Shown here: in pieces, positions 3,358-17,807 of the stretch
How positions within the stretch are numbered: position 1 is the first letter of the stretch
Layout of the letters: the number at the start of each line of letters is the position of its first letter
Source: an uncultured virus (IMG/VR IMGVR_UViG_3300021254_000023)
Lineage: Duplodnaviria; Heunggongvirae; Uroviricota; Caudoviricetes
Direction: 5' to 3' (one strand)
Length of the DNA: 20,000 nt
Virus record (IMG/VR): IMGVR_UViG_3300021254_000023
Made by a program: the position numbers and the translations under genes
Notes under the pieces: generated by a model
Told to the model about the DNA's origin: nothing
Database searches by the model: none
The model's input: only the letters and a program-made list of their open reading frames with translations

Positions 3358-3368
3358 CTTTAATAAGG
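3358..3368 (-). promoter_or_regulatory. Repeated promoter-like motif CCTTATTAAAG
   Basis: Copy of the CCTTAtanaTG family 24 nt upstream of ATG 3333, just after a hairpin. Confidence 0.55.
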
Positions 3369-3795: not shown

Positions 3796-5338
3796 TAATT
3801 TCTTTAAATTTCCAAGAAATTTCTACACCCTTGAGCGTTAAACCACTAAGTTCTATCTTCTTCGTGGTTTGGGCTGCTGACGGACGATACTTGTCTGCAA
3901 ATTTAGCTGTCTTGCTAGCAATCAGCTTGAAGGTATTCTCACGGATGATGCTCTGAGAGTTCTTCTCAATGGCCTCCCAATAGGACTTGTTTTTACTAGT
4001 CCGCTTGATATATCCAAGGATCCTAATCAGGTTCTCTGCCTTAATGCCGCCACGGCTGATTTGTCCATGCTCAACATAGTCAGTCAGGGCATTAGTGATG
4101 GCAGTGGAATCTGAGAAAAGGCCCTTCATAGTGGACTGTAGTTCAACAGTCTTATAGGAACCGTGGCTCTGAACGGGAATCTCTCGTGTGGGATAGTAAT
4201 GATCACCATAGATACCAATTCCCCGGAGGAACTGTTCTGCGCTGCTAACCTGAGTACGATGTTGACGGTTCTGAGAGTTTTGCTCAGTGGCCTTAGCTTC
4301 CATTATCGTCAGGTATTCCTGAGCAACCTTGGCAATATACAGCCTTGCCTCTGCGTCTGCCAGTACGTATGATGGCATAGCCTTTACGTTGTTTCTGCAT
4401 ACAATAGGAATCTTTTTAAGGTTCACTAAGTAGAGATTGTCGTAGGCTTCATTCATCTCTATACAACCAACCGCTCTTAGACGACGAGCGAGGCTGCTAC
4501 TTACCTTCACTCCAAGGAGAGGCATATTGAGACGACCATCTCGAATTATGTTTATGGTCTTCAGGCAGGTCAATCCTTCACGACGACCGGGCTCTACGCC
4601 GAATTCGTTCTCAGGGACGTCCACACTAACGAGAGCTTTATACTGTAGGCTCAAGTTAGCTCGAGTTTTATTACCGACAATTGCTGTGACGGGAACGAGC
4701 TGATTCATTATATACTCGACTCCCTCTGGTTTCCGGGTAGATGATGCCGTAATTCTTTCATATCGACCTACTAACTCTGGATCGATTAGTATTTTAGCAC
4801 TATCTTCTACCAAGTCATTAACAAGTTCGAAAACACTATACCTACGACCCTTCTTATAGAGTCTTGGACAGGTCATGATGTTAAGCTCTTGATTAATGTT
4901 TGGTCTCCAACTAGCACTCTCGTACATTTCTCCGGCAAGATTTTCTAATGTATTTAGACCTGTTTCACCATAGACAGAGTAAAACTGATCGATGAGTTTA
5001 GAATCTCGAGTGGCAAGTACCAGATCCTCAATGGTATCCATATAGACTTTTGGAGTACCAATGATCATCACTAGAATCTCACGAAGATCATTGATTTCGT
5101 AATCCTGGAGAGGATTCTTAGTTGTGGTCTTAAGGATCACGTAAGCATGAGTTCCTTGTACTTCAACCTCCCCCAATCCGTAGGTTTGATAACACCTGAT
5201 AGAGTTTGATACAACATCGAGAGTCACTATAAATTGTGCTCTCTGTTGGGATTTATTCGTTAAACGAACTTTCCCGTTTTCAATTGTTTGTGGGGTAATC
5301 TTAATTCTTGCTCCACTAATTAGTACTTCGTTGTTCAT
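3782..5338 (-). CDS. Hypothetical protein, 518 aa; C-terminal half resembles the tail region of phage vWA-domain proteins
   Basis: Long ORF with its own promoter motif. RANLSL...VDVPEN...INIIRDGRLNM is recalled from phage vWA-type proteins. No DxSxS MIDAS motif is visible. Confidence 0.75.
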   Translation of the reverse strand: MNNEVLISGARIKITPQTIENGKVRLTNKSQQRAQFIVTLDVVSNSIRCYQTYGLGEVEVQGTHAYVILKTTTKNPLQDYEINDLREILVMIIGTPKVYMDTIEDLVLATRDSKLIDQFYSVYGETGLNTLENLAGEMYESASWRPNINQELNIMTCPRLYKKGRRYSVFELVNDLVEDSAKILIDPELVGRYERITASSTRKPEGVEYIMNQLVPVTAIVGNKTRANLSLQYKALVSVDVPENEFGVEPGRREGLTCLKTINIIRDGRLNMPLLGVKVSSSLARRLRAVGCIEMNEAYDNLYLVNLKKIPIVCRNNVKAMPSYVLADAEARLYIAKVAQEYLTIMEAKATEQNSQNRQHRTQVSSAEQFLRGIGIYGDHYYPTREIPVQSHGSYKTVELQSTMKGLFSDSTAITNALTDYVEHGQISRGGIKAENLIRILGYIKRTSKNKSYWEAIEKNSQSIIRENTFKLIASKTAKFADKYRPSAAQTTKKIELSGLTLKGVEISWKFKEINVRV

Positions 5339-7938: not shown

Positions 7939-7977
7939 AAAAAGAGGGGCAGCTTAATTGCTGTCGCCTTCTTTTTT
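7939..7977. terminator. Bidirectional terminator between convergent genes
   Basis: AAAAAGAGGGGCAGC-ttaatt-GCTGTCGCCTTCTTTTTT. Confidence 0.6.
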
Positions 7978-8871
7978 ATTTATCCACCAGATTATGTGGT
8001 CTTCGAGAGGTTTATCTGGTTCAATCCTATGTCTTGACACTGAGGATTTGATCATCTCCTTTGTTTTCTCAAAGAACTCATCAATCAGGTCTTCATGACC
8101 CTCCATAAACTCTTCATACTTTATGTTAGTATACTGAGTAGGATTGTATATAACTGTATATCCCATACAGCAAGATGTATACCTGAGTTCTAAGTCTCTA
8201 TTAACAGAAACCCAATAGTAGTCGTCGTCTCCATCGATAGCGCCCAAGAGGTATGCTAAGTCATTCGGCTCGACTTTACTATAGTTCCCCGGATAGTCTG
8301 GATTTCCCCATGCCCAGTGAATATACTTACCAACATCATCCTTAGCCTCTTTCAGGATAGCCAATTCATTATTGGCGTGCCAGAAAAGGCGGTGTTTCTT
8401 GTAATACGCATTTTTGAGTTTCCCTAGGATATCCACGTTGTAGGCTTCTCCTATAGGATTTTTTGGATTTCCATCCTCGTACTGATCACCAAAGATATCT
8501 AGGATGAAACGTCCAACAGCTTTCGACCTAGATTTTCCCGCTTTACAATGAATGACGAAGTCCTTTCCTAAGTTCCTTTCAATGAAGGTAACTATTAGAG
8601 CACCTTGTCCGCCAGTCATGGCTTTCATCCAATGTCCCTTGTATTGATAATCACCTGGCCCAGGAATATCATCAAATTCTATATTAAAGACGTTTGGGGA
8701 ATCGGAAAGAATGTGATCATTGTCATAGTCTTCCTTATCCTCTTCTAGTCTATACTTAATACAGTCTGGGGAACCTTCAATGGAGATAAAGGCTGTCTTA
8801 GTGGGATCTCTCTTGTATATTTCTTCTCGGAAATCTTTTTTAGAATATACACTAACTGTATTCTTTTTCAT
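7954..8871 (-). CDS. Protein-tyrosine/dual-specificity phosphatase-like (Cx5R) protein with an extra C-terminal domain
   Basis: P-loop VIHCKAGKSRS and an upstream acid loop IEFDDI. Confidence 0.85.
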   Translation of the reverse strand: MKKNTVSVYSKKDFREEIYKRDPTKTAFISIEGSPDCIKYRLEEDKEDYDNDHILSDSPNVFNIEFDDIPGPGDYQYKGHWMKAMTGGQGALIVTFIERNLGKDFVIHCKAGKSRSKAVGRFILDIFGDQYEDGNPKNPIGEAYNVDILGKLKNAYYKKHRLFWHANNELAILKEAKDDVGKYIHWAWGNPDYPGNYSKVEPNDLAYLLGAIDGDDDYYWVSVNRDLELRYTSCCMGYTVIYNPTQYTNIKYEEFMEGHEDLIDEFFEKTKEMIKSSVSRHRIEPDKPLEDHIIWWINKKEGDSN

Positions 8872-9230
8872 GGCAACTCTTCTATTCCCTGTCCTAACCA
8901 GTCTGCTACAATATGACGGTGGCAGAAGTCGCCTGGTTTTTCATAACATACTAGGGCAACTTCTTTTTTCCCGCCTGCCAATTCAGTCAAATTTCTTAAG
9001 ACTGATTCTTTATCTAAAACACTTAGTCGCTCTTTCAAAAACCTCTCGGTATATCTTTCTGGTGTTCCACCACGATTTTTATATTCATCGTAGATATCCC
9101 AAGAAGGGGCCAAGAGTTTGTATTCAGGATATTCCCAGCCAGGGACTGCTTTTCCACATATGGCAATTGGCATTATCCTGTCCGTGTCAATTGATTTGAC
9201 ATGAGCGAAATAGGTTGTCCAAATTTTCAT
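8868..9230 (-). CDS. DUF488-family protein
   Basis: MKIWTTYFA...LLAPSW...Y.ERF...ALVCYEKPGDFCHRHIVADWL. Start placed at ATG 9230, which overlaps the rtcB stop as ATGA. Confidence 0.85.
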   Translation of the reverse strand: MKIWTTYFAHVKSIDTDRIMPIAICGKAVPGWEYPEYKLLAPSWDIYDEYKNRGGTPERYTERFLKERLSVLDKESVLRNLTELAGGKKEVALVCYEKPGDFCHRHIVADWLGQGIEELP

Positions 9231-10618
9231 TTCTTTTTCTTTAAGGACCGCCAATCAGGTATTTCATCCTCCGCACCAGCTTTAATGTTTATGGCTGGTT
9301 TAATGAAGTACAGAATATCAGCGGTTGGTTTAATATTTTCAACAATTTCTTCCATAGGTTTATATGCCATGGGAGATTCGTCAATTGTACTCATATTAAC
9401 GGAGGTTGAGTAAATACCTTCCATAGATTTTTCGAAATCTTTCAATTTCAAGGTGTCCTTTGCTTTCGCTCTTGACATAACGCGACCAGCGCCATGAGAA
9501 CAAGAGTAGTTCCAATCGGGATTTCCTTTTCCCACACAAACTGCCATACCGTCTCTCATGTTGAATGGGAGAAGGAATGTCTCGTGAAGATTAGCTCGTA
9601 CGGCACCCTTTCTAATCATGGGAATACCATCAACTGTATCAAAGTCTATGTAGTTGTGAGTAGTAGTTACCACCCCAACCTTCTTAGCCTCTTTGACAAT
9701 TCCATTATAAATCTCTTCGGTCAAGCGGAGGATAGTTTGGTGATTGTAGGCTGCATAGGCCTGTGCTATTACCATGTCCGTTAAGTAGTATCGAAGATCT
9801 TCTCCCTCTAAGTAGCCAGGATTTCCTTGAGACTTATACTCGGCTATGGCCTTGTCTATTTCTTCACGAATCTTGGTTTTATCTTTGATTCTTTCACGAA
9901 CCTCTCTTGTGATTTGTCTTTCGACCTGTTTATCAAGTTTAACTTTGTTGGCTATATCATGCCACTTTTTCCATACCCTCTGGCCTAGGTTTCTAGAACC
10001 GGTATGAATGGTAACGGCCTGGATTGGCGTCATCATGTCTCCACCAACACCACCAAAGATAGCAGTAGATGGAGAAACACCTGTTCCATACTCGATAAAG
10101 TGATTCCCGCCGCCGATAGTTCCTATTGATTTATAGAATGTGGCTGGATCTATACCAACATCTTTCATCCATTCTTCCAGGTCATCTTCGTCTTGGAATT
10201 CTGGAACTATTGTTAGCCCACCTGTCCTCTGATAAGCCTTTCGTAAAGATTCTCTAAGAAATTTTAAAAAATCTTTAACTTCAAACATCCTATGTTCCTG
10301 AAGTCTTTTCCCTAATGGGAATGTTTTCTTCAGGCGGTGTTCAAAGAGAGGATATTTATCGGGCGGAATAGGTTCACTCATGAAAAGAGCACTAATAGAG
10401 CAACCTAGGTCGCAACCAACATGATCAGGATTAACCCAATCTCCGAGAGGAGCAGTAAATCCAATTACTATTCCTTCTCCTGAGTGAACATCAGGCATCA
10501 CTCTAACGCGTTTTCCATCAAAAGCTTTATTTCTACAGACCTCATAGATGGTTTCTAATGCCGTAGGCTCTACATAGTCTGTAAAAATCTTACAATTAAA
10601 ATTTTCAAGTTCAATCAT
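9227..10618 (-). CDS. rtcB: RtcB RNA 2',3'-cyclic/3'-phosphate-5'-OH ligase
   Basis: Motifs MPDVHSG, VGCDLGC, GTIGGGNHFIE, HTGSRNLG, HNY, RKGA, SCSHGAGR and DESPMAYK. Start placed at ATG 10618 (MIELENF), overlapping the upstream stop. Confidence 0.95.
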   Translation of the reverse strand: MIELENFNCKIFTDYVEPTALETIYEVCRNKAFDGKRVRVMPDVHSGEGIVIGFTAPLGDWVNPDHVGCDLGCSISALFMSEPIPPDKYPLFEHRLKKTFPLGKRLQEHRMFEVKDFLKFLRESLRKAYQRTGGLTIVPEFQDEDDLEEWMKDVGIDPATFYKSIGTIGGGNHFIEYGTGVSPSTAIFGGVGGDMMTPIQAVTIHTGSRNLGQRVWKKWHDIANKVKLDKQVERQITREVRERIKDKTKIREEIDKAIAEYKSQGNPGYLEGEDLRYYLTDMVIAQAYAAYNHQTILRLTEEIYNGIVKEAKKVGVVTTTHNYIDFDTVDGIPMIRKGAVRANLHETFLLPFNMRDGMAVCVGKGNPDWNYSCSHGAGRVMSRAKAKDTLKLKDFEKSMEGIYSTSVNMSTIDESPMAYKPMEEIVENIKPTADILYFIKPAINIKAGAEDEIPDWRSLKKKK

Positions 10619-10826
10619 AGTTATCAAGCGATTTTTCTTGTTTTCTATACTCTGACATTCTCTCTTCATATTTAGTACCTGCCAAAAATCCTTTTCGGAA
10701 AGCAAAATTCATGGCTTTTGTTACGATGGAGTTTATGTCTAATCCCTCTGCAATAAATTTCTTAACAGACTCATCAGTATCTTTGAAATTATTCTGTAAG
10801 TCTGGTTTTTCTGGTTTTCTAATCAT
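10611..10826 (-). CDS. Hypothetical protein, 71 aa
   Basis: Tiles between neighbouring genes; AFRKGFLAG is typical of small phage proteins. Confidence 0.7.
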   Translation of the reverse strand: MIRKPEKPDLQNNFKDTDESVKKFIAEGLDINSIVTKAMNFAFRKGFLAGTKYEERMSEYRKQEKSLDNYD

Positions 10827-10932
10827 TTTTCTTTGGTTTATAAAATGGACAATTCATAAATGCTAGTGGATTATGTTCAAAACACTCGCTTTGATTCCAT
10901 GCTTCACTACAATTTCCTGATTCAGTGCACAT
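10819..10932 (-). CDS. Small 4-Cys protein (37 aa), not in ORF track
   Basis: MCTESGNCSEAWNQSECFEHNPLAFMNCPFYKPKKND; overlaps both neighbours. Confidence 0.55.
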   Translation of the reverse strand: MCTESGNCSEAWNQSECFEHNPLAFMNCPFYKPKKND

Positions 10933-11323
10933 TGTTTAGGTATATATTACTTAAGATTAGCCAAGTTATTACAATCTGACACATATGTACTATTTGATCT
11001 GTCCAAAGACTAATCTTTTTTTGATTTGCTTTTAGATCATCTACTACGTAGTGCGCCGTTGCATTTAATACAAATATTACAGTTACCGTCTCATTAATTC
11101 CCTCCCATCCCCAAGTTATGACTAAGAATGGAAAAAGAATCATGATTGACCACGATATACTATGGATAGCTAGTGCCATTTTATAGTCATTCTTATAAAG
11201 ATCGTCGGGGGCGTTCTTTTCCCACCAACATCTCTGTTTCATACTACTCAGGCAGATTGGTTGTAACACAAAATCATCAATGATATGTGCTAGAATCATA
11301 AATAGTAGGAGTTTAGCCATCAC
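10922..11323 (-). CDS. DUF3307-family membrane protein
   Basis: LAHIIDDFVLQ...LAIHSI...HYVVDDLK...DQIVH pattern. Confidence 0.85.
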   Translation of the reverse strand: MMAKLLLFMILAHIIDDFVLQPICLSSMKQRCWWEKNAPDDLYKNDYKMALAIHSISWSIMILFPFLVITWGWEGINETVTVIFVLNATAHYVVDDLKANQKKISLWTDQIVHMCQIVITWLILSNIYLNNVH

Positions 11324-11514
11324 TTATTAGCAATAATGTAACATAATACTACAACTCCTGCTACCATAACTGCTGGCCAGAATAACCATGCTCCAACTGG
11401 GATTAGATTCCTTTTCCACCAAGAATCAGCTCCTTCAACTAAGACTCTTCCTACAATTAGAGCCCAAATTCCAAATACTAGGTAAAGTATTACTGCAATG
11501 ATAATAGTTAGCAT
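11320..11514 (-). CDS. Small membrane protein, 64 aa
   Basis: Two hydrophobic segments including WLFWP; overlaps both neighbours. Confidence 0.75.
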   Translation of the reverse strand: MLTIIIAVILYLVFGIWALIVGRVLVEGADSWWKRNLIPVGAWLFWPAVMVAGVVVLCYIIANK

Positions 11515-12581
11515 ACTCTTGTTATTCTATTTAAAAATTTAACTGGTTCTCGGTTTTCAAAGTAGAATAGGAGGTCGTAATCGTCAGGCTGAGGAGGAAT
11601 ACCATGTAGGTCTTCATAGATCTGAGCCATATAATTCTTCGTCACTCCTTTCATTTCATAGGTTCCGTCAGAGAACTCCTTGAGATATGCTCTGACACTC
11701 TGATCTGTAACTGTCTTGTATTCGACTGACTTCAGAAAGAATACCTGAGGATTCACGTAGGTCTGTTGTTCGGCAGCTACCCAATCACGAACCTCTAAGA
11801 GGCCTTTCCAATCAATCTCTATTGGATCTGGTCCTAGGGCGAAGATAATTTCGTCGTTATCACGGGTAATAATCTCTCCCTTATCTCCAATAAATTCTTT
11901 GATTGGTCCAGCAGCCTTGGTTATCATCCACTTCTCAATAGTCATCTGTCTGGAGGGATTTGTATTTCCAAAGACAACCACTCTAAGGTGTTTACTCTTC
12001 TTGATGTAATTCTTTACTGACTCCGGACACTTATCCCCAATGACAGCATCAACCCACTTGTCGTAGAGTTCTTTAGGTTTCTTACCTTCCTCTGGTCCGA
12101 CCGGAACTCCTGTGAAAAAGTCTGGAGAGATAGAAGATAGGGCTTGGTAATTAGCTCGAGACATATCTATACTCAGATAGTATTGCCCTACCTTACTTTC
12201 ATTATAGATATTATTCTTTGGGAGTTTTTCGGGGATATAATCAAACTCCTTGTTCGTAGCGGAGTACTCTTGGAGATCTTTCTTATTGAAAACATCATAC
12301 CAAGGACTCTGCAAGATACCTTGTAATAGAGCTTCTCGACCTTGGAAGTAGGAATCTATAAATGCCTTCGGATTTCCACCAAAGTCTTTCTCTACTCCTT
12401 GGAGAATCTCATCCCAGAGGGTCTTAGTTTTAAACATACCCTCATAAAGGTTCACCAGGTATTCAAAAGGACCATCTTCCATAACTGTAATTGGAAGTTT
12501 CATGTCCTCAATAAATCTGTACTTTAATTCTCTATTTTCTATCATATCATAGGTAAGGGGAACAAAAGAAAAAGGAAGCAT
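11508..12581 (-). CDS. Hypothetical protein, 357 aa, with polymerase-palm-like motifs
   Basis: YLSIDMSRANYQAL and IITRDNDEIIFAL. The CDS is secure; the function is speculative. Confidence 0.75.
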   Translation of the reverse strand: MLPFSFVPLTYDMIENRELKYRFIEDMKLPITVMEDGPFEYLVNLYEGMFKTKTLWDEILQGVEKDFGGNPKAFIDSYFQGREALLQGILQSPWYDVFNKKDLQEYSATNKEFDYIPEKLPKNNIYNESKVGQYYLSIDMSRANYQALSSISPDFFTGVPVGPEEGKKPKELYDKWVDAVIGDKCPESVKNYIKKSKHLRVVVFGNTNPSRQMTIEKWMITKAAGPIKEFIGDKGEIITRDNDEIIFALGPDPIEIDWKGLLEVRDWVAAEQQTYVNPQVFFLKSVEYKTVTDQSVRAYLKEFSDGTYEMKGVTKNYMAQIYEDLHGIPPQPDDYDLLFYFENREPVKFLNRITRVC

Positions 12582-12582
12582 T

Positions 12583-13182
12583 TTATACTTCCTCTATCTT
12601 TTTTATTCTAACGTCACTCCAAATATCCATAGGTGCTCCTAATGGTGTAAGAATATCCACTCGATTAGTGAACCTTGGATTCATAGTATCATGAACTATG
12701 TATCGACCGTTTATTCGTCTATTTCCCTTGACGACGGTTAATTCAATGACATTACCGTAGTTGTACCTATCAAGTAAGTCTCTACTGACGGCAACCCAAC
12801 GAATCTTCCCTTGTCTAAGTTTTTCTAAGTCAATTTTACTATTATCCGCAGTTATTAGTGGATCTTCGTCACATTGTGACACCACTGGATTATATTGAGT
12901 AACAGTTACTCTTCCTTTGTGTTTCTTTCTCTTGTGGGCAGCCAGCTTAATTGTTTTCTTTATAGTCGGCTCTTCCCATGAACACTCTTCTTCTTCTATG
13001 GTTTCAGGGTTTGGTCCATTATATTTTCCAATGGATGCAATAGCTCCCTCTAACCACTCTTTTTCTCGCTGTTCCCTACTTTTAGGTTTATTAGGGTTCA
13101 GGTTATACCCAAATAGACAAAACATGAACATGACTATTAGGGTAAATTGTAATCTATCAACCCTCTTTTCATCTTTTGTCAT
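12583..13182 (-). CDS. Membrane-anchored 3D-domain (MltA/RlpA-like double-psi barrel) protein, probably cell-wall lytic or binding
   Basis: N-terminal TM; VTVTQYNP..QCDEDPLITAD, WVAVSRDLL, YIVHDTMN.RF..RVDIL. Start placed at ATG 13182. Confidence 0.85.
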   Translation of the reverse strand: MTKDEKRVDRLQFTLIVMFMFCLFGYNLNPNKPKSREQREKEWLEGAIASIGKYNGPNPETIEEEECSWEEPTIKKTIKLAAHKRKKHKGRVTVTQYNPVVSQCDEDPLITADNSKIDLEKLRQGKIRWVAVSRDLLDRYNYGNVIELTVVKGNRRINGRYIVHDTMNPRFTNRVDILTPLGAPMDIWSDVRIKKIEEV

Positions 13183-13507
13183 ACTTCTTGGCAATTATTT
13201 TAAGTTCATTATTCTTGCCATTTAAAGTACTCCCTAAGAGTGCGTCGGCAAGTAAAATTAGCGTATTAACTCCGGCCGTATTTTTTACTTCCGGAATATT
13301 CTCTTTTTCATATACCGTTCCATCGGTATCTTTATTGTTAAACTGAAAAGAGACATTTTTATCCATCTTAATGGTTCTCTTTTTCAGCCGCTGTACGTAA
13401 TATTGACAAGTTTCATTTACGAAACCTACCATTTCAATGATGACTTTACGTCTTTGTATGTCGAACTTTGCCCAGTCCTCATACCTTTTTCTGAAATAAT
13501 TTTCCAT
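13169..13507 (-). CDS. Hypothetical protein, 112 aa
   Basis: First gene after the promoter motif at 13533-13543. Confidence 0.75.
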   Translation of the reverse strand: MENYFRKRYEDWAKFDIQRRKVIIEMVGFVNETCQYYVQRLKKRTIKMDKNVSFQFNNKDTDGTVYEKENIPEVKNTAGVNTLILLADALLGSTLNGKNNELKIIAKKYDKR

Positions 13508-13532
13508 AATATTCTTCGTTTAATTATTCTAC

Positions 13533-13543
13533 TATATATAAGG
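13533..13543 (-). promoter_or_regulatory. Promoter-like motif CCTTATATATA(G)
   Basis: 25 nt upstream of ATG 13507; heads the gene run 13507 to 7954. Confidence 0.55.
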
Positions 13544-13566
13544 CGCTGATATACTTTTCAGACGGT

Positions 13567-13619
13567 AAAAAAAATACAGGACTCGACACCTCCTTTCAAA
13601 AGATGTTGTCGTCTCTGTA
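13567..13619 (-). terminator. Intrinsic terminator
   Basis: UACAGAGACGACAACAUCUUUUGAAAGGAGGUGUCGAGUCCUGUA followed by U8. The G.U pairs favour minus orientation. Confidence 0.7.
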
Positions 13620-13697
13620 TACACAAACACAAACTACTTAAAACTCACTAAAAACCGGAACAATTATCATCGTTAATCGTTATTACATTATTAGTTT
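13567..13697 (-). ncRNA. Candidate small non-coding RNA
   Basis: Bounded by the motif at 13701-13711 and a hairpin plus U8 terminator at 13567-13619. The longest ATG ORF inside is 10 codons. Confidence 0.45.
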
Positions 13698-13700
13698 TCA

Positions 13701-13711
13701 CATTTATAAGG
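13701..13711 (-). promoter_or_regulatory. Promoter-like motif CCTTATAAATG
   Basis: Consensus copy directly after the hairpin GGGGAGAT-ttaag-GTCTTCCC that spans the DHH gene stop. Confidence 0.6.
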
Positions 13712-13729
13712 GTTTGAAGGGGGAAGACC

Positions 13730-14659
13730 TTAAATCTCCCCTTTCATTATTAGCTTCTCAAAATCAGCTAAGTTCAACTGAGTACCAGCAGCGCCAGCAT
13801 GACCTCCAGCTTTATCTGCTCCGAAGCGACTTTGCAAGTATTCGCCACAGTTAAATTCTGGTAGCCTTCCATTTTCCATATACATTCCAAGCGTAAAATA
13901 CACACTGCCAGTAGTTTCATCGGTTTTTCGATTAGCAGTCATGTAGATGTCATAATCATCTTTAACTGATTCAAAAATCCTAGAACCCATGCTGTTGGTT
14001 AGGATGCAAATTCCTTTGTACTTCCCTGCAACAGTGACGGGAAATGAATACGTTTTCACAGCGGCCTTGAATTGCTGCTTCTCATAATCATTAATCATTC
14101 GGCCCGCCTCTAATATGTGATCCATAGAGAAGGCGTCAGTCATGAAGTTATCGAAGTTTTCATAGATCTTATCGAAGTTCATTCCGTACTGTGCTTTTAG
14201 GGCGAGCTGGAATGGAACGATCTCTATGTCCCAGTTAAAACGGGAATGGTCCCAAACATCATAGGAAGAGAGGTACTGGATAGTCATGGGCGGTCTTGCT
14301 CCTCGGGTAAAAAATTCCCAAGTAAGTTCGCATGCTCCTTGACCGATTCGTCTCAGACCATCAATATCATTATAACCATTGCTGTCAGCTAGGTTCAAGG
14401 CAGTTACATGATGATCAATCCAGATCACATCTACGTTTCCTTTCAACCACTTCATAATGTTGGGAGGGAATGATATATCAACTAGGATGGCAGCATCGAA
14501 CTCCATCTCGTCAAACTTAGGCATAGGATCACCGTGTGTCCATCCTAACATCTCAATTTCATCCCAATAACCTTCTTTAGCTAGGGCCCACTTAGCAACC
14601 CCAGCACTAAATAACCCATCGTAATCAACTCGATGGTAAACTATAATTACTTTTTTCAT
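13730..14659 (-). CDS. DHH/DHHA1-family phosphoesterase
   Basis: YHRVDYDG, LVDISF, WIDHH, GACELTW, YDVW and GGHAGAAG motifs. Confidence 0.92.
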   Translation of the reverse strand: MKKVIIVYHRVDYDGLFSAGVAKWALAKEGYWDEIEMLGWTHGDPMPKFDEMEFDAAILVDISFPPNIMKWLKGNVDVIWIDHHVTALNLADSNGYNDIDGLRRIGQGACELTWEFFTRGARPPMTIQYLSSYDVWDHSRFNWDIEIVPFQLALKAQYGMNFDKIYENFDNFMTDAFSMDHILEAGRMINDYEKQQFKAAVKTYSFPVTVAGKYKGICILTNSMGSRIFESVKDDYDIYMTANRKTDETTGSVYFTLGMYMENGRLPEFNCGEYLQSRFGADKAGGHAGAAGTQLNLADFEKLIMKGEI

Positions 14660-15450
14660 ATTATATCAAGAAATGTAGATTCTCCATCATATATTCTCAG
14701 TAAGGTAAGTTCCTCGTTGAATGCAGTTCTTTCTATATTTTCTTGAGTTACTACCATACCGCTCCAGGCAGAGATATCTTTAAACACTTTATCAACATCA
14801 CCAACCGTAGTGAATTCGCATTCCTCTAGGTTAGAAATAGTCTCTCCATAACGTTCACCAAAAAAGGACTTCTGACTATCCGTCAAGTCACGAGCCACAA
14901 ATAGTGCGATGGCTGTGTGAAAGTAATTCCGGACATGCTCGGGGTCTGAGAAGAGAGGATAAGCTTTCATCTCCTTAAACTCCATCTTCTCCTTTAGCTT
15001 GTCTTTTGAATAGAGGATTCTCTCATTGGCTTTCTGTCGATCGATAGTTGAGATAGCTGAACAAAGACTACGTTCAGCCTCATTGGCTTCCCACTTCCAG
15101 GTGGCAGCCTCTAAGACACAGTCCGATAGTATATCTATGTACCTGTCGATAAGTCCATTGGCAGCCTCCAAGGAATCAAACCAATAGTCATCAGCTTTAG
15201 TCTCAACACCAACCCAGAAGTCTTTCCATGGAGCGGGGATTTCTAGTTTTTCAGCAGTTTCTCTAACTTCTGCATATTTTCTTCGGCAATGCACCTTGTA
15301 CTTATCCAGCTCTAGTGTTACGTCTATGAGCTTATCCTGGAAAGCACTAATTTCTCGCCTTGCCGCATTTGCTTTTTCTAGTTCTTTTTTCTTAGAACTT
15401 AATAGCCGATCTAGTTCATCGGTACTAATTTCTTTGTTGTTAAATTTCAT
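14656..15450 (-). CDS. Hypothetical protein with N-terminal coiled coil, 264 aa
   Basis: ORF with an ATGA overlap to the DHH gene and a promoter motif upstream. Confidence 0.8.
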   Translation of the reverse strand: MKFNNKEISTDELDRLLSSKKKELEKANAARREISAFQDKLIDVTLELDKYKVHCRRKYAEVRETAEKLEIPAPWKDFWVGVETKADDYWFDSLEAANGLIDRYIDILSDCVLEAATWKWEANEAERSLCSAISTIDRQKANERILYSKDKLKEKMEFKEMKAYPLFSDPEHVRNYFHTAIALFVARDLTDSQKSFFGERYGETISNLEECEFTTVGDVDKVFKDISAWSGMVVTQENIERTAFNEELTLLRIYDGESTFLDII

Positions 15451-15475
15451 TTGCTTTACCTGTTATTTTGTTTCT

Positions 15476-15486
15476 CAAAGGTAAGG
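15476..15486 (-). promoter_or_regulatory. Promoter-like motif CCTTACCTTTG (matches Bacteroidota -7 element TAnnTTTG)
   Basis: 25 nt upstream of ATG 15450; overlaps the 3' arm of hairpin AGGGGAAT...ATTCCCCT. Confidence 0.6.
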
Positions 15487-15543
15487 GGAATCAGACTTTA
15501 TTGGCCTAAATTCCCCTAGTGAATTCCTTCGTAAGTATGGCAG

Positions 15544-16611
15544 CTAGGAATTCTTTTGTCTAAGTTTGGTATAACTCTGTTTCCCTTTCGCCACCGACGA
15601 GGGATCAATGAGTCGCCAATACCTATTATTTTTATTCTCAAAAATGTTATCTGCGTATTCTGGTGGACGTTTGTCACTTTTAGAAGTTTCACGTACGGAT
15701 TCTCCGCTCTGTTTTATTCCAAACGCATTGTCCCAAGAAACGTCAAATATGTCGCCTGCCTTACGACCTGTTAATGCTAGTGGAGAAATACCACCACCAT
15801 TTTTTACTAGTCGGATGATAATATACATATTACCTTCAATATCAATGAAGTCCGACTCTTTTACTTTTTCCGATCCTTTAAAATCCCCTGTTATCATAGT
15901 CCACGGTACGTCTTCACCTTTTTTGTATCCTTGGTAAGATCCTATTCCCTGAATATCATCCTTTATGGATATTCTGAGGGATACGAGGAAGAGTTCCGCA
16001 TCCAAGAAGTCACCACCCGGGGTTTGAATTATATTCTTATCGGAGGTATTCTTGAAACCACTAAGTTTCAACACCATGTACCTAATTGATCCTCTCCATT
16101 CCTCCAAGGCGGAAGTTGGGTAAGTACTCAGGTCTAGGTTATCAAAGACCTTTTTCTCAGGATCAAATTGTCTCCAGGCAATGATATCAGCTGGGAAGAT
16201 GATGAGTTTTGGCTTATATTCAATTCCAAAGTACTCACACATCTTTTCTGAGAGAAACTTCTTATGACCTATCTCACCGGTCTGATGAGACATTATCACG
16301 GAATTGAACTTCTCTGTTTGAACAACCTTCTCCAGTTTATAAACCGTCTTAAGACCATTCTCGTAGAGGTGTCCTGGAATAAGTTCTCCACTAGAATCCT
16401 CTACAGCAGGGAGGGGTAGTCTCGGCTTTTCAAGACGTTGATCAAGGAAAGATAGGTAGTGATCCGTTGGGATAACATCTATCCTATCTCCCTTTAATCT
16501 AACGTAATGTGTTGCGCGAGACCTGTAGTGAAAGATAGGATACCCTTTCTCATCCTTCCCCTCGGTTACTCTAATTGTATCAGTATCGTTGTAACAATAC
16601 ATTCCTGCCAT
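15544..16611 (-). CDS. Hypothetical protein, 355 aa
   Basis: Long ORF coupled to telA by a TAATG overlap. Confidence 0.8.
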   Translation of the reverse strand: MAGMYCYNDTDTIRVTEGKDEKGYPIFHYRSRATHYVRLKGDRIDVIPTDHYLSFLDQRLEKPRLPLPAVEDSSGELIPGHLYENGLKTVYKLEKVVQTEKFNSVIMSHQTGEIGHKKFLSEKMCEYFGIEYKPKLIIFPADIIAWRQFDPEKKVFDNLDLSTYPTSALEEWRGSIRYMVLKLSGFKNTSDKNIIQTPGGDFLDAELFLVSLRISIKDDIQGIGSYQGYKKGEDVPWTMITGDFKGSEKVKESDFIDIEGNMYIIIRLVKNGGGISPLALTGRKAGDIFDVSWDNAFGIKQSGESVRETSKSDKRPPEYADNIFENKNNRYWRLIDPSSVAKGKQSYTKLRQKNS

Positions 16612-17807
16612 TATTTAAGCTCATCTGCCGTGATAGCTGCTTTACCAGTACCGTACATCTCTTCAAGGTCTTTAGCAATACCACGAAGTTCCTCACTAGT
16701 TTCTTTATTAATTCTAGAGATCTCTGCACGAGCTTCAGCTCTCTTTTGAGCTGCTTCGCGTATATTCTGAGCAGACGTCTTGAGGGCCTCCACAACGCTT
16801 GTGTTAGCCTGACGGTAGGTATCGAGATCGATGATATCACGCATGGCATTCTCCTCTACCTTGATAGTGATGTTCTTCATGTTCTCGGCATTCTGAACAA
16901 TCATCTTGTTGTGCATATCTTTGATAAGTTTCTGAGACTCTGCAATCTCTTCACTTCTCTGATCAATGATAGCGATGGCGATAGAGGTTTCCCACTCTGG
17001 AAGCACGTGATTCCTGATATTCTCTGCACTGGAGGCCAAGATCTCAGTATTATCTTTCATCTTCTGAATCTGCGGGAGAAGGATGTGGCCATTATATTGA
17101 GCTGCCATGAACAGCTGGTGACCACGCTCATCAATCTTCTCAAGGAATCTCTTCTTTGCGATAAGCTCCTGATCTGACCACTTACCTGGAGTTTCTCCAT
17201 TCTCCTTAAGCATTCTGTTGTACTCATCTTCAGTATCCTTATAGAGCTGAGCGAGGGCAACATAGTCCATACCAAGCTGCTCTATATAGGAGACAGTCTT
17301 TCTCTGAATCTCATCCAAGGTATTGTAATCCTGGAAGAGGTCGGCCTGTTGTGTTGCCAGAGAGTCAGAGACACGGCCAATAGTCTTCTTAGCGGATTCG
17401 TGCTTCTGAATGAGTTTATCTACACGAGCTGCTGCCGGGACTCCGATAAAGGGGAGTTTGGCTACGAATTTTTTCCAACCGGTCAGTTTGTCTGGATCTG
17501 CGAGCTGAGACTCATTAATGACGTCTACAATCTCCTGGATATAACCACCGACAGGACCGGCCTTATCTATCTTGTTCATTTCCAGCAACTTTGCTGAGCA
17601 CTCACTCTTCGTGGACTCAAGCTTGATACCGAAAGATGACAAGGTCTTCTCGTCTTTTACGTGGCGAGTGATCTCACGACAACGAGCAACTGCCTCTGGA
17701 GACAAGCTACTGACGTCAACGCGACCATCTTCACCAACAACACGACTAAGTTTCACCAATGCGTCGTCCGCATTTTCTCTTACTGTTTTTACAATTTCGT
17801 TTGCCAT
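16611..17807 (-). CDS. telA: Toxic anion resistance protein TelA/KlaA family
   Basis: Helical ~400-aa protein with TLSSFG, KKFVAKLPFIG, LPQIQKMKDNTEIL, VLPEWETSIAIAI, MIVQNAENMK and IIDLDTYRQAN matching the TelA pattern. Confidence 0.88.
   Translation of the reverse strand: MANEIVKTVRENADDALVKLSRVVGEDGRVDVSSLSPEAVARCREITRHVKDEKTLSSFGIKLESTKSECSAKLLEMNKIDKAGPVGGYIQEIVDVINESQLADPDKLTGWKKFVAKLPFIGVPAAARVDKLIQKHESAKKTIGRVSDSLATQQADLFQDYNTLDEIQRKTVSYIEQLGMDYVALAQLYKDTEDEYNRMLKENGETPGKWSDQELIAKKRFLEKIDERGHQLFMAAQYNGHILLPQIQKMKDNTEILASSAENIRNHVLPEWETSIAIAIIDQRSEEIAESQKLIKDMHNKMIVQNAENMKNITIKVEENAMRDIIDLDTYRQANTSVVEALKTSAQNIREAAQKRAEARAEISRINKETSEELRGIAKDLEEMYGTGKAAITADELK

Follow-up and report, generated by a model that had tools for sequence, protein, structure and literature searches.

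The short transcript of phage lambda that runs from PR' to tR' (6S RNA) and its derivative StxS are constitutive phage transcripts made from a promoter and an intrinsic terminator with no open reading frame (ORF), and the late genes of lambda depend on Q-mediated read-through. In enterobacteria, DapZ and MicL belong to the small RNAs (sRNAs) of the 3' untranslated region (3'-UTR) type, which have their own promoter and share the terminator of the mRNA. To our knowledge, regulatory RNAs of phages are barely known outside the enterobacterial and Pseudomonas phages, and we are aware of none from the large uncultured phages that infect gut hosts of the Bacteroidota type, in which translation starts lack Shine-Dalgarno (SD) sequences. 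Here we describe a closed promoter-to-terminator cassette on the minus strand of a 20,000-nucleotide (nt) stretch of DNA from an uncultured virus of the Caudoviricetes (IMG/VR record IMGVR_UViG_3300021254_000023; the whole stretch is called the window in the following). The unit lies at 13711-13567 behind a gene for a DHH-family phosphoesterase, is real as a cassette, and is the probable source of a small RNA about 125-135 nt long.

The unit resembles the PR'-tR' arrangement of lambda in that an intrinsic terminator lies about 130-190 nt past the promoter and that there is no ORF. It differs in having a separate promoter after the terminator, and no antiterminator was identified. A dependence on read-through like that of the lambda late genes was not found, because a second promoter is present in the window (13532-13566) and likewise in four other lineages. 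The likeness to DapZ and MicL is in the layout, a 3'-UTR slot in which a small RNA gene would have a promoter of its own: the promoter motif lies at the end of the upstream coding sequence, 18 nt past its stop codon, and one terminator is common to the putative small RNA and the upstream DHH operon, as in sRNAs of the 3'-UTR type. Hfq dependence, conserved seeds, and verified targets are, in contrast, features of DapZ and MicL.

Mechanistically, the nearest described RNAs appear to be the FopS and GibS sRNAs of Bacteroides thetaiotaomicron, which combine a single-stranded seed with a terminator hairpin and block translation initiation regions (PMC11697453). The FopS RNAs are 65-70 nt long, host-encoded, multicopy, transcribed from sigma-ABfr promoters, and have the seed at the 5' end (PMC11697453). 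The window unit likewise has a Rho-independent terminator hairpin, and a candidate pairing region that is predicted to be single-stranded in the RNA of the window but paired in the related contig L096. Its candidate seed is, however, located just before the terminator, and it is single-copy, phage-encoded, led by a phage-specific motif, and without a match in Rfam. Thus, of the features of a FopS/GibS-like RNA, an own promoter motif (from which promoter activity is predicted) and a 3' Rho-independent terminator are present, but targeting beyond chance and a match to a family model were not found.

Organisation of the unit

The DHH-family phosphoesterase gene upstream of the unit (13730-14659, minus strand, as are all elements of the unit given below) encodes 309 residues and matches phrog_4771 with an E-value of 1.8e-20; 118 relatives of the protein were found, many of them with PF01368. 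Behind its TAA stop follows the promoter-type motif CCTTATAAATG (P1, 13711-13701), which is preceded by a pyrimidine-rich tract and TTCAAAC (13712-13727). AT-rich sequence of 30 nt separates P1 from ATG 13670, the start of a 10-codon ORF (MIIVPVFSEF) whose TAA stop (13640-13638) ends 18 nt ahead of the terminator hairpin. The U/G-rich stretch GGUUUUUAGUGAGUUUUAAGUAGUUUGUGUUUGUGUA (13656-13620), which includes the proposed seed (13643-13624), stands directly before the hairpin and is the only distinctive part of the unit. The hairpin itself (13619-13575; 45 nt, -14.7 kcal/mol) is followed by a U8 tail (T8 in the DNA, 13574-13567), and then by the second promoter, P2, with the sequence ACCGTCTGAAAAG-N10-CCTTATATATAG (13566-13532), 24 nt ahead of ATG 13507 of a 112-aa ORF (13169-13507). 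The promoter motif, the hairpin with U8, and the 10-codon ORF as the only one had been described in an earlier interpretation of the letters alone (in the following the sequence-only reading), and all of them are found on the minus strand at the coordinates given there.

The span of about 126 nt from the motif to the hairpin and U8 contains no ORF longer than these 10 ATG codons, and an ATG ORF of at least 20 residues was not found anywhere in the unit. The three frames with a GTG or TTG start (21-32 residues) extend across the hairpin and can hardly be genes, and no ATG frame of the window unit is long enough for a transmembrane segment (about 20 residues or more). Features of a leader-peptide attenuator were also not detected, given the distance between the stop codon and the hairpin and the lack of a competing structure in the minimum free energy (MFE) and centroid folds. 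The hairpin is the sole element that is retained in the centroid fold. It was not listed by a simple terminator scan because its stem is interrupted, and no other terminator was seen between the DHH stop (13730) and 13619.

The promoter motif

The motif CTTATAnATG is also present 25-31 nt upstream of the ATGs of the 518-aa, 62-aa, and TelA-like genes of the window. The motif family was scanned with the pattern CCTTA[TC]N[AT]AT[GA] in G002 (= L001/L015), a 218-kb IMG/VR contig with a completeness of 60% as estimated by CheckV, with which the window is collinear at 87-89% identity. There, 16 of the 19 copies are followed by a same-strand ORF of at least 50 residues within 60 nt, compared to 20% of 3000 random positions and one of the 10 copies of the reversed motif. 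The three exceptions in G002 are two arrangements of promoter, hairpin, and gene, and the ortholog of P1, which itself is the only copy in the window that is not followed by a gene. In G002, the P1 ortholog is the variant CCTTATTAATG, and the same variant stands before two bona fide genes of G002. The ATGs of real genes are found 20-31 nt past the motif, a range that includes the 30 nt of the 10-codon ORF in the window. By this distribution, the motif is regarded as a genuine gene-start signal and P1 as a bona fide copy of it.

According to their upstream parts, the promoters can be divided into two classes, one with a pyrimidine-rich tract (P1 and most genes) and one with ACCGTCTnAnAAG 8-10 nt upstream of CCTTATATATG. 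The latter class comprises P2 of the window (13532-13566), four sites in G002 (111197, 113792, 114182, 211060), and the second promoter of the related contig L096 (4100-4137). The two classes may be temporal classes. A polymerase or sigma factor was not found by Pfam in 36 of the 45 G002 ORFs of at least 350 residues, a set that left out six ORFs spanning locus borders and three orthologs of window ORFs, in a contig about 60% complete.

Hairpins with U-rich tails are also present in 5'-UTRs of G002, behind the motifs ending at 164409 (plus strand), 114172, and 113782 (both minus strand), in each case without a second promoter. At least two more are found in the more distant G003, behind the motifs ending at 169445 and 21703 (both minus strand). 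In these 5'-UTRs the tail lies 42-59 nt past the motif and the ATG follows 25-45 nt after the tail, and such promoter-proximal hairpins might serve this phage family as attenuators or as 5' stabilisers. A different arrangement concerns the 357-aa ORF of the window (11508-12581), which probably starts at ATG 12545, two bases past a CCTTACCTATG motif that is itself preceded by a hairpin and a T-run (12545-12581). The succession of motif, at or tt, and ATG is present in five genes of G002 (74060, 101093, 132267, 179055, 214437) and, read from the sequence, would imply near-leaderless mRNAs or a start within the motif.

Recurrence in related phages

The DNA 3' of the DHH stop was inspected in the loci of the relatives. 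An automatic pass, which excluded DHH matches ending before residue 280 or with less than 200 nt downstream (L108 among them), kept 24 distinct downstream regions. The strict motif was flagged in four of these 24, and L100 and L108 with the variant TCTTATATATG were added by eye. A closed ORF-less unit, consisting of a promoter, 75-190 nt, a hairpin with a U-run, and a second promoter, is found in five lineages, namely window/G002/L095, L096/L097, L017, L100, and L108. In all five, the second promoter closes the unit, standing past the terminator and ahead of the next ATG, which argues for a product of its own and not for a 5' leader. At least six lineages have a copy of the motif 13-32 nt past the stop codon of DHH, together with a conserved upstream TCAAA element. 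L108 has two closed units in tandem (3898-4440) between DHH and a homolog of the 203-aa protein of the window.

In a tree of the DHH proteins (21 rows, chosen by us), one group (92/94) unites the window and G002 with L096 and L017, and another (91/95) unites L100 and L108 with L187 and L018, while the identity of the DHH proteins among the unit-bearing lineages is only 40-48%. Because the five lineages belong to two supported clades at this low identity, P1 and the terminator seem to have been kept over a long divergence with no ORF between them. In three further lineages, the same slot contains a gene for a small membrane protein: L187 has a near-identical P1 (CCTTCAAAGCCTTATATATG) followed by a 55-aa single-pass membrane protein and a terminator, L018/L099 encode a 49-aa membrane protein directly behind DHH, and the protein of L101 has at least 59 residues. 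The slot behind DHH and, in L187, the framing by promoter and terminator match the window, but these genes are open frames of 49 to at least 59 codons with a transmembrane segment compared to the 10 codons in the window. In at least six lineages (L016/L098, L111, the L019/L116 group, the L021-L057 group, L103, and L188) a terminator follows straight after the DHH stop.

The unit is available in only two informative sequence versions, that of the window, G002, and L095, and that of L096 and L097. L095 is a 138.5-kb metagenome contig whose DHH protein is 100% identical to that of the window and whose copy of the 146-nt unit is identical as well. The pre-terminator stretch of L096, GGUUUUAGUUUUUGUUUUAAGUUUAGUUUGGUG, appears weakly similar to that of the window in a local alignment (score 24; 41 of 1000 shuffles scored at least as high, p ~0.04). 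The hairpin of L096 has a different sequence at the same position. At the place equivalent to the window ORF, L096 has a hydrophobic ORF of 14 codons (MVLVFVLSLVWCGL), which can be aligned with MIIVPVFSEF as M[IV][IL]V.V[FL]S and which, unlike the ORF of the window, overlaps the 5' arm of the hairpin. Another ORF of 23 codons is located straight behind P1 of L096. Directly behind the second promoter, L096/L097 carry an 81-nt tRNA-like gene (4144-4224), which ARAGORN assigns as tRNA-Ile(aat); tRNA genes were not found in the window or in G002.

An exact 30-mer of the unit was found in IMG/VR only in G002, and a degenerate 18-base pattern resulted in 12 matches, of which 11 were unrelated on inspection. 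With blastn-short no paralog was detected in G002, the window, or 160 loci, and searches by megablast and blastn did not reveal a match among the INPHARED phages.

Conservation between the window and G002

The window and G002 are identical over 136 nt (13569-13704), which is the third-longest perfect run in the 20 kb. For comparison, the third codon positions of DHH are 66% identical and the other long intergenic regions 82-86%. An ultra-conserved segment of 100-170 nt with 0-3 mismatches, coding or not, is found behind every promoter motif of the window in the comparison with the otherwise about 88% identical G002 (motif ends at 3358, 5370, 7714, 12548, 13701, and 17833). The first mismatches past the motif are at +60 and +151 for telA, at +6 and +173 for the 62-aa gene, at +125 for the 345-aa gene, at +47, +85, and +169 for the 518-aa gene, at +61 and +100 for the 184-aa gene, and at +133 for P1. 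Over the first 40 codons, the identity at third positions is 96.7% in six motif-led genes (240 codons) compared to 75.7% in 20 others (800 codons). Because every promoter is followed by near-identical bases, P1 acts like the other promoters, but this is no proof of selection on the sequence of an RNA. The promoter-proximal ultra-conservation could be caused by selection on the 5' RNA or DNA or by recombination seeded at promoters.

Complementarity to translation initiation regions

In the sequence-only reading, the U/G-rich stretch was supposed to pair with a class of A-rich, SD-less leaders. The leaders are of this kind, with 41% A at positions -25 to -1 and an SD core in one of the 26 window leaders. 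Two minus-strand targets had been proposed, the leader of the TelA-like gene (gene 16611-17807, ATG 17807; pairing at 17829-17810), which with -17.5 kcal/mol is the best of the 26, and the leader of the 518-aa gene (ATG 5338; pairing at 5361-5347) with -15.3 kcal/mol. The pair counts given for them are exact: 16 Watson-Crick pairs, 3 G.U pairs, and 1 mismatch between 13643-13624 and 17829-17810, and 13 Watson-Crick pairs, 1 G.U pair, and 1 mismatch between 13637-13623 and 5361-5347. The pairing with the telA leader covers positions -22 to -3 from the AUG with 19 of 20 bases paired. However, both leaders contain ACATAAACTA (shared leader motif ACAUAAACUA) and therefore the two targets are not independent.

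Duplex energies between a 27-nt part of the stretch (13650-13624) and leaders, taken as positions -35 to +6 of ORFs of at least 70 residues, were determined for 26 leaders in the window and 275 in G002, with dinucleotide shuffles of the stretch as controls. The best duplexes have -17.5 kcal/mol in the window and -19.2 kcal/mol in G002, compared to -15.1 +/- 2.1 and -17.8 +/- 1.6 kcal/mol (mean +/- sd) for the shuffled stretch. Duplexes as good were obtained with 19 of 150 stretch shuffles (13%) in the window and 21% in G002, and with 9% of 300 and 22% of 60 leader shuffles, respectively. Leaders pairing with -14 kcal/mol or better number three of 26 in the window (expected 1.0-1.15), a count that 5-11% of the shuffles reach, and nine of 275 in G002 (expected 8.2-8.8). 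Averaged over its three best duplexes, the energy in the window is unusual (1.3% in both controls), but these three include a match of the G/C type to an unrelated leader. The ungapped count of 19 of 20, a statistic picked post hoc after the match had been seen, was reached by one of 400 dinucleotide and one of 200 mononucleotide shuffles against the 26 window leaders, but is not rare against the 275 leaders of G002 (12 of 150 and 3 of 40 shuffles). Targeting of a class of leaders could thus not be confirmed, and the pairing is essentially no better than with shuffled AT-rich leaders. Composition alone is enough to make U/G-rich RNA complementary to A-rich leaders, which calls for caution in similar cases where an sRNA seems to mirror leaders.

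The leader adjacent to P2 is not among the eight best of the 26 window leaders (the eighth having -9.4 kcal/mol). A TelA homolog was not found in G003. We also considered the stretch as an inverted copy of a promoter and leader, which was rejected because by eye the similarity to the region upstream of telA ends at 20 nt.

Interpretation of the unit

The best single reading is that of a stand-alone small RNA gene, to which we give a probability of about 0.4. In its favour are, besides the recurrence, the strong terminator, the weak similarity of the U/G-rich stretch to that of L096, the 19 of 20 bases paired with the telA leader, and a host-type biology with A-rich, SD-less leaders and sRNAs of the FopS/GibS type in Bacteroides (PMC11697453). 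From the sequence-only reading this retains the sRNA unit, as a closed transcription unit rather than just a 3'-UTR, but not the targeting of a leader class. The phage promoter P1 would fire just behind the DHH gene and the polymerase would halt at the hairpin-U8 terminator, which would also end the DHH operon. By this, a small RNA of about 125-135 nt without credible coding capacity would be released, and the separate promoter P2 would start the next operon. What is observed is the promoter motif, the terminator, the lack of an ORF between them, and the recurrence in relatives; that an RNA is made, is stable, and pairs with any target is our inference. P1 and the terminator have been kept around an interior without an ORF, and a fresh promoter always follows, which suggests that the transcript or its making matters and that the unit is not a 5' leader.

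Several results weigh against a small RNA gene or against its pairing function. Although the closed unit recurs in five lineages, the interiors cannot be aligned among the lineages except for L096, and the unit of L017 is A-rich instead of U/G-rich and without any ATG. The U-run is broken in G002 (TATTTTAATTTCG) and is the only variable spot of the unit. The perfect run of 136 nt was considered as a constraint on the RNA and rejected, because all six other promoter sites of the window behave alike. The fold of the whole 171-nt region is no more stable than those of shuffles (z = 0.28), Rfam gave no match at the gathering thresholds (the best E-values on the unit, 3.4-7.7, belong to unrelated families), and a second copy of the unit was not found in the 218 kb of G002 or in IMG/VR. 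By energy, 9-22% of the shuffles are as good as the seed, whose complementarity to the leaders is thus no better than chance. The pairing stretch is predicted to be mostly unpaired in the RNA of the window (unpaired probability ~0.6-0.99), but the corresponding stretch of L096 is predicted to be paired.

If the small RNA acts by pairing, the likeliest action would be that the unstructured U/G-rich stretch of about 30 nt base-pairs with A-rich, SD-less initiation regions, for which the leaders of the TelA-like and the 518-aa genes would be the best candidates in the window. Given the energies, we consider this mechanism unlikely. Still less is to be said for a more extended version, in which the fixed slot behind DHH in gut or rumen jumbo phages with SD-less Bacteroidota-type hosts would contain a fast-evolving small RNA gene whose U/G stretch masks the phage's own TelA-like and 518-aa initiation regions, each lineage having an RNA matched to its own leaders. 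If true, an RNA would serve as a timing switch where translation works without Shine-Dalgarno pairing. A verified small RNA at this locus would open the field of regulatory RNAs in such phages. The present value is more modest and consists of a phage-specific promoter motif in two classes and of a closed promoter-terminator cassette that recurs in one slot.

Instead of making a functional RNA, the hairpin-U8 might mainly end the DHH operon and insulate P2, so that most transcripts from P1 are stopped and the short RNA is a by-product; P1 would feed the downstream operon only when termination is overridden, like at lambda PR'-tR'. We regard such a role in termination as possible, although not probable. 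It would explain why P1 and the terminator but not the interior are conserved across the lineages, why elements of a promoter-proximal hairpin and U-run recur (three in G002 and at least two in G003), and it would fit the missing of any other terminator between the DHH stop and 13619. In addition, the degenerate U-run of G002 would permit read-through. Read-through is, however, not needed for the downstream genes, given that all five lineages have their own second promoter, and the tails of the 5'-UTR cases are at 42-59 nt past the motif compared to +126 here. An antiterminator was not identified, and Pfam found nothing relevant in 36 large G002 proteins. The membrane proteins in the same slot of L187 (55 aa, with the near-identical P1), L018/L099 (49 aa), and L101 (at least 59 aa) suggest still another origin, namely that the slot once held a gene for a hydrophobic or membrane protein framed by P1 and the terminator. 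The U/G stretch would then be a remnant of hydrophobic codons and the product nothing useful anymore or a 10-aa micropeptide. The spacing of the window ATG to P1, the alignment of MIIVPVFSEF with the peptide of L096, and the frame beyond the TAA, which reads VVCVCVYRDDNIF, hydrophobic and then charged, are all consistent with such a relic. But 10 codons are too short to span a membrane, U/G-rich sequence reads hydrophobic in any frame, and the unit of L017 does not contain any ATG. The window and G002 are identical across the ORF and hence provide no codon-level signal. Keeping P1 and the terminator round a dead gene in five lineages is hard to reconcile with compact phage genomes, and a relic or minimal gene is improbable in our view.

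It could also be that P1 is a fortuitous motif in an ordinary long 3'-UTR ending at the operon terminator and that there is no separate RNA. The motif is short (11 nt), and its strict pattern has a lower specificity in G003, a more distant relative, where only 18 of 35 copies stand ahead of an ORF. The unit is also not shown by any contig from the RNA libraries, which is not evidence either way. However, the motif follows the DHH stop at 13-32 nt in at least six lineages together with the upstream TCAAA, and the sequence past P1 is ultra-conserved just as it is behind the other promoters, so that a chance juxtaposition is very improbable.

RNA libraries

The sequence was listed for 20 runs, 19 of which are on record as RNA, from 11 studies and with a word share of at most 0.47. 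Four runs from four studies were aligned, all in the form of contigs, whose gaps carry no information on expression. All four contig sets cover both flanks of the unit and none covers or joins across 13523-13686, but contigs cannot show absence. An upstream contig, X1, stops 14 nt past P1 at 13687, which, coming from a single run, does not allow any inference. Near P2, contig ends are found at 13517 (in two studies, one of them running into adapter), 13520, and 13504, which is 12-28 nt past P2 and might be a weak hint at a 5' end, that is at a transcript start at P2.

Source of the sequence and neighbouring genes

The source of the window is an uncultured jumbo phage of the gut or rumen. The contigs carrying DHH relatives are 180-400 kb long, and the runs containing the sequence are gut, sheep-gut, and bovine-gut metatranscriptomes. 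The nearest cultured phages, those of Bacteroides and Phocaeicola, are distant, with about 40% identity in the RtcB protein, and the DHH protein shares 24-29% identity with the 462-kb record of an uncultured phage and with the Prevotella Lak phages. Two of the contigs with DHH relatives have been deposited as bacterial metagenome-assembled genomes (MAGs). L187 (371 kb) and L188 (376 kb), deposited as MAGs of Mycoplasmatota and Bacilli, carry the phage DHH gene, and L187 in addition has the phage promoter motif; both look like jumbo-phage genomes that have been binned as bacteria.

The 112-aa ORF behind P2, which has no PHROG match, has diverged from its G002 ortholog to an equal degree at the three codon positions (identities of 0.92, 0.96, and 0.92), unlike every neighbouring gene. 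Within a run of genes on one strand (7954-17807), the window encodes several RNA- or stress-related proteins, namely an RtcB RNA ligase (9227-10705), the DHH protein (13730-14659), and the TelA-like protein (16611-17807). In G002, a 447-aa ORF on the minus strand (216549-217892, corresponding to L013:16549-17892) contains a reverse-transcriptase domain (RVT_1, E-value 1.5e-7).

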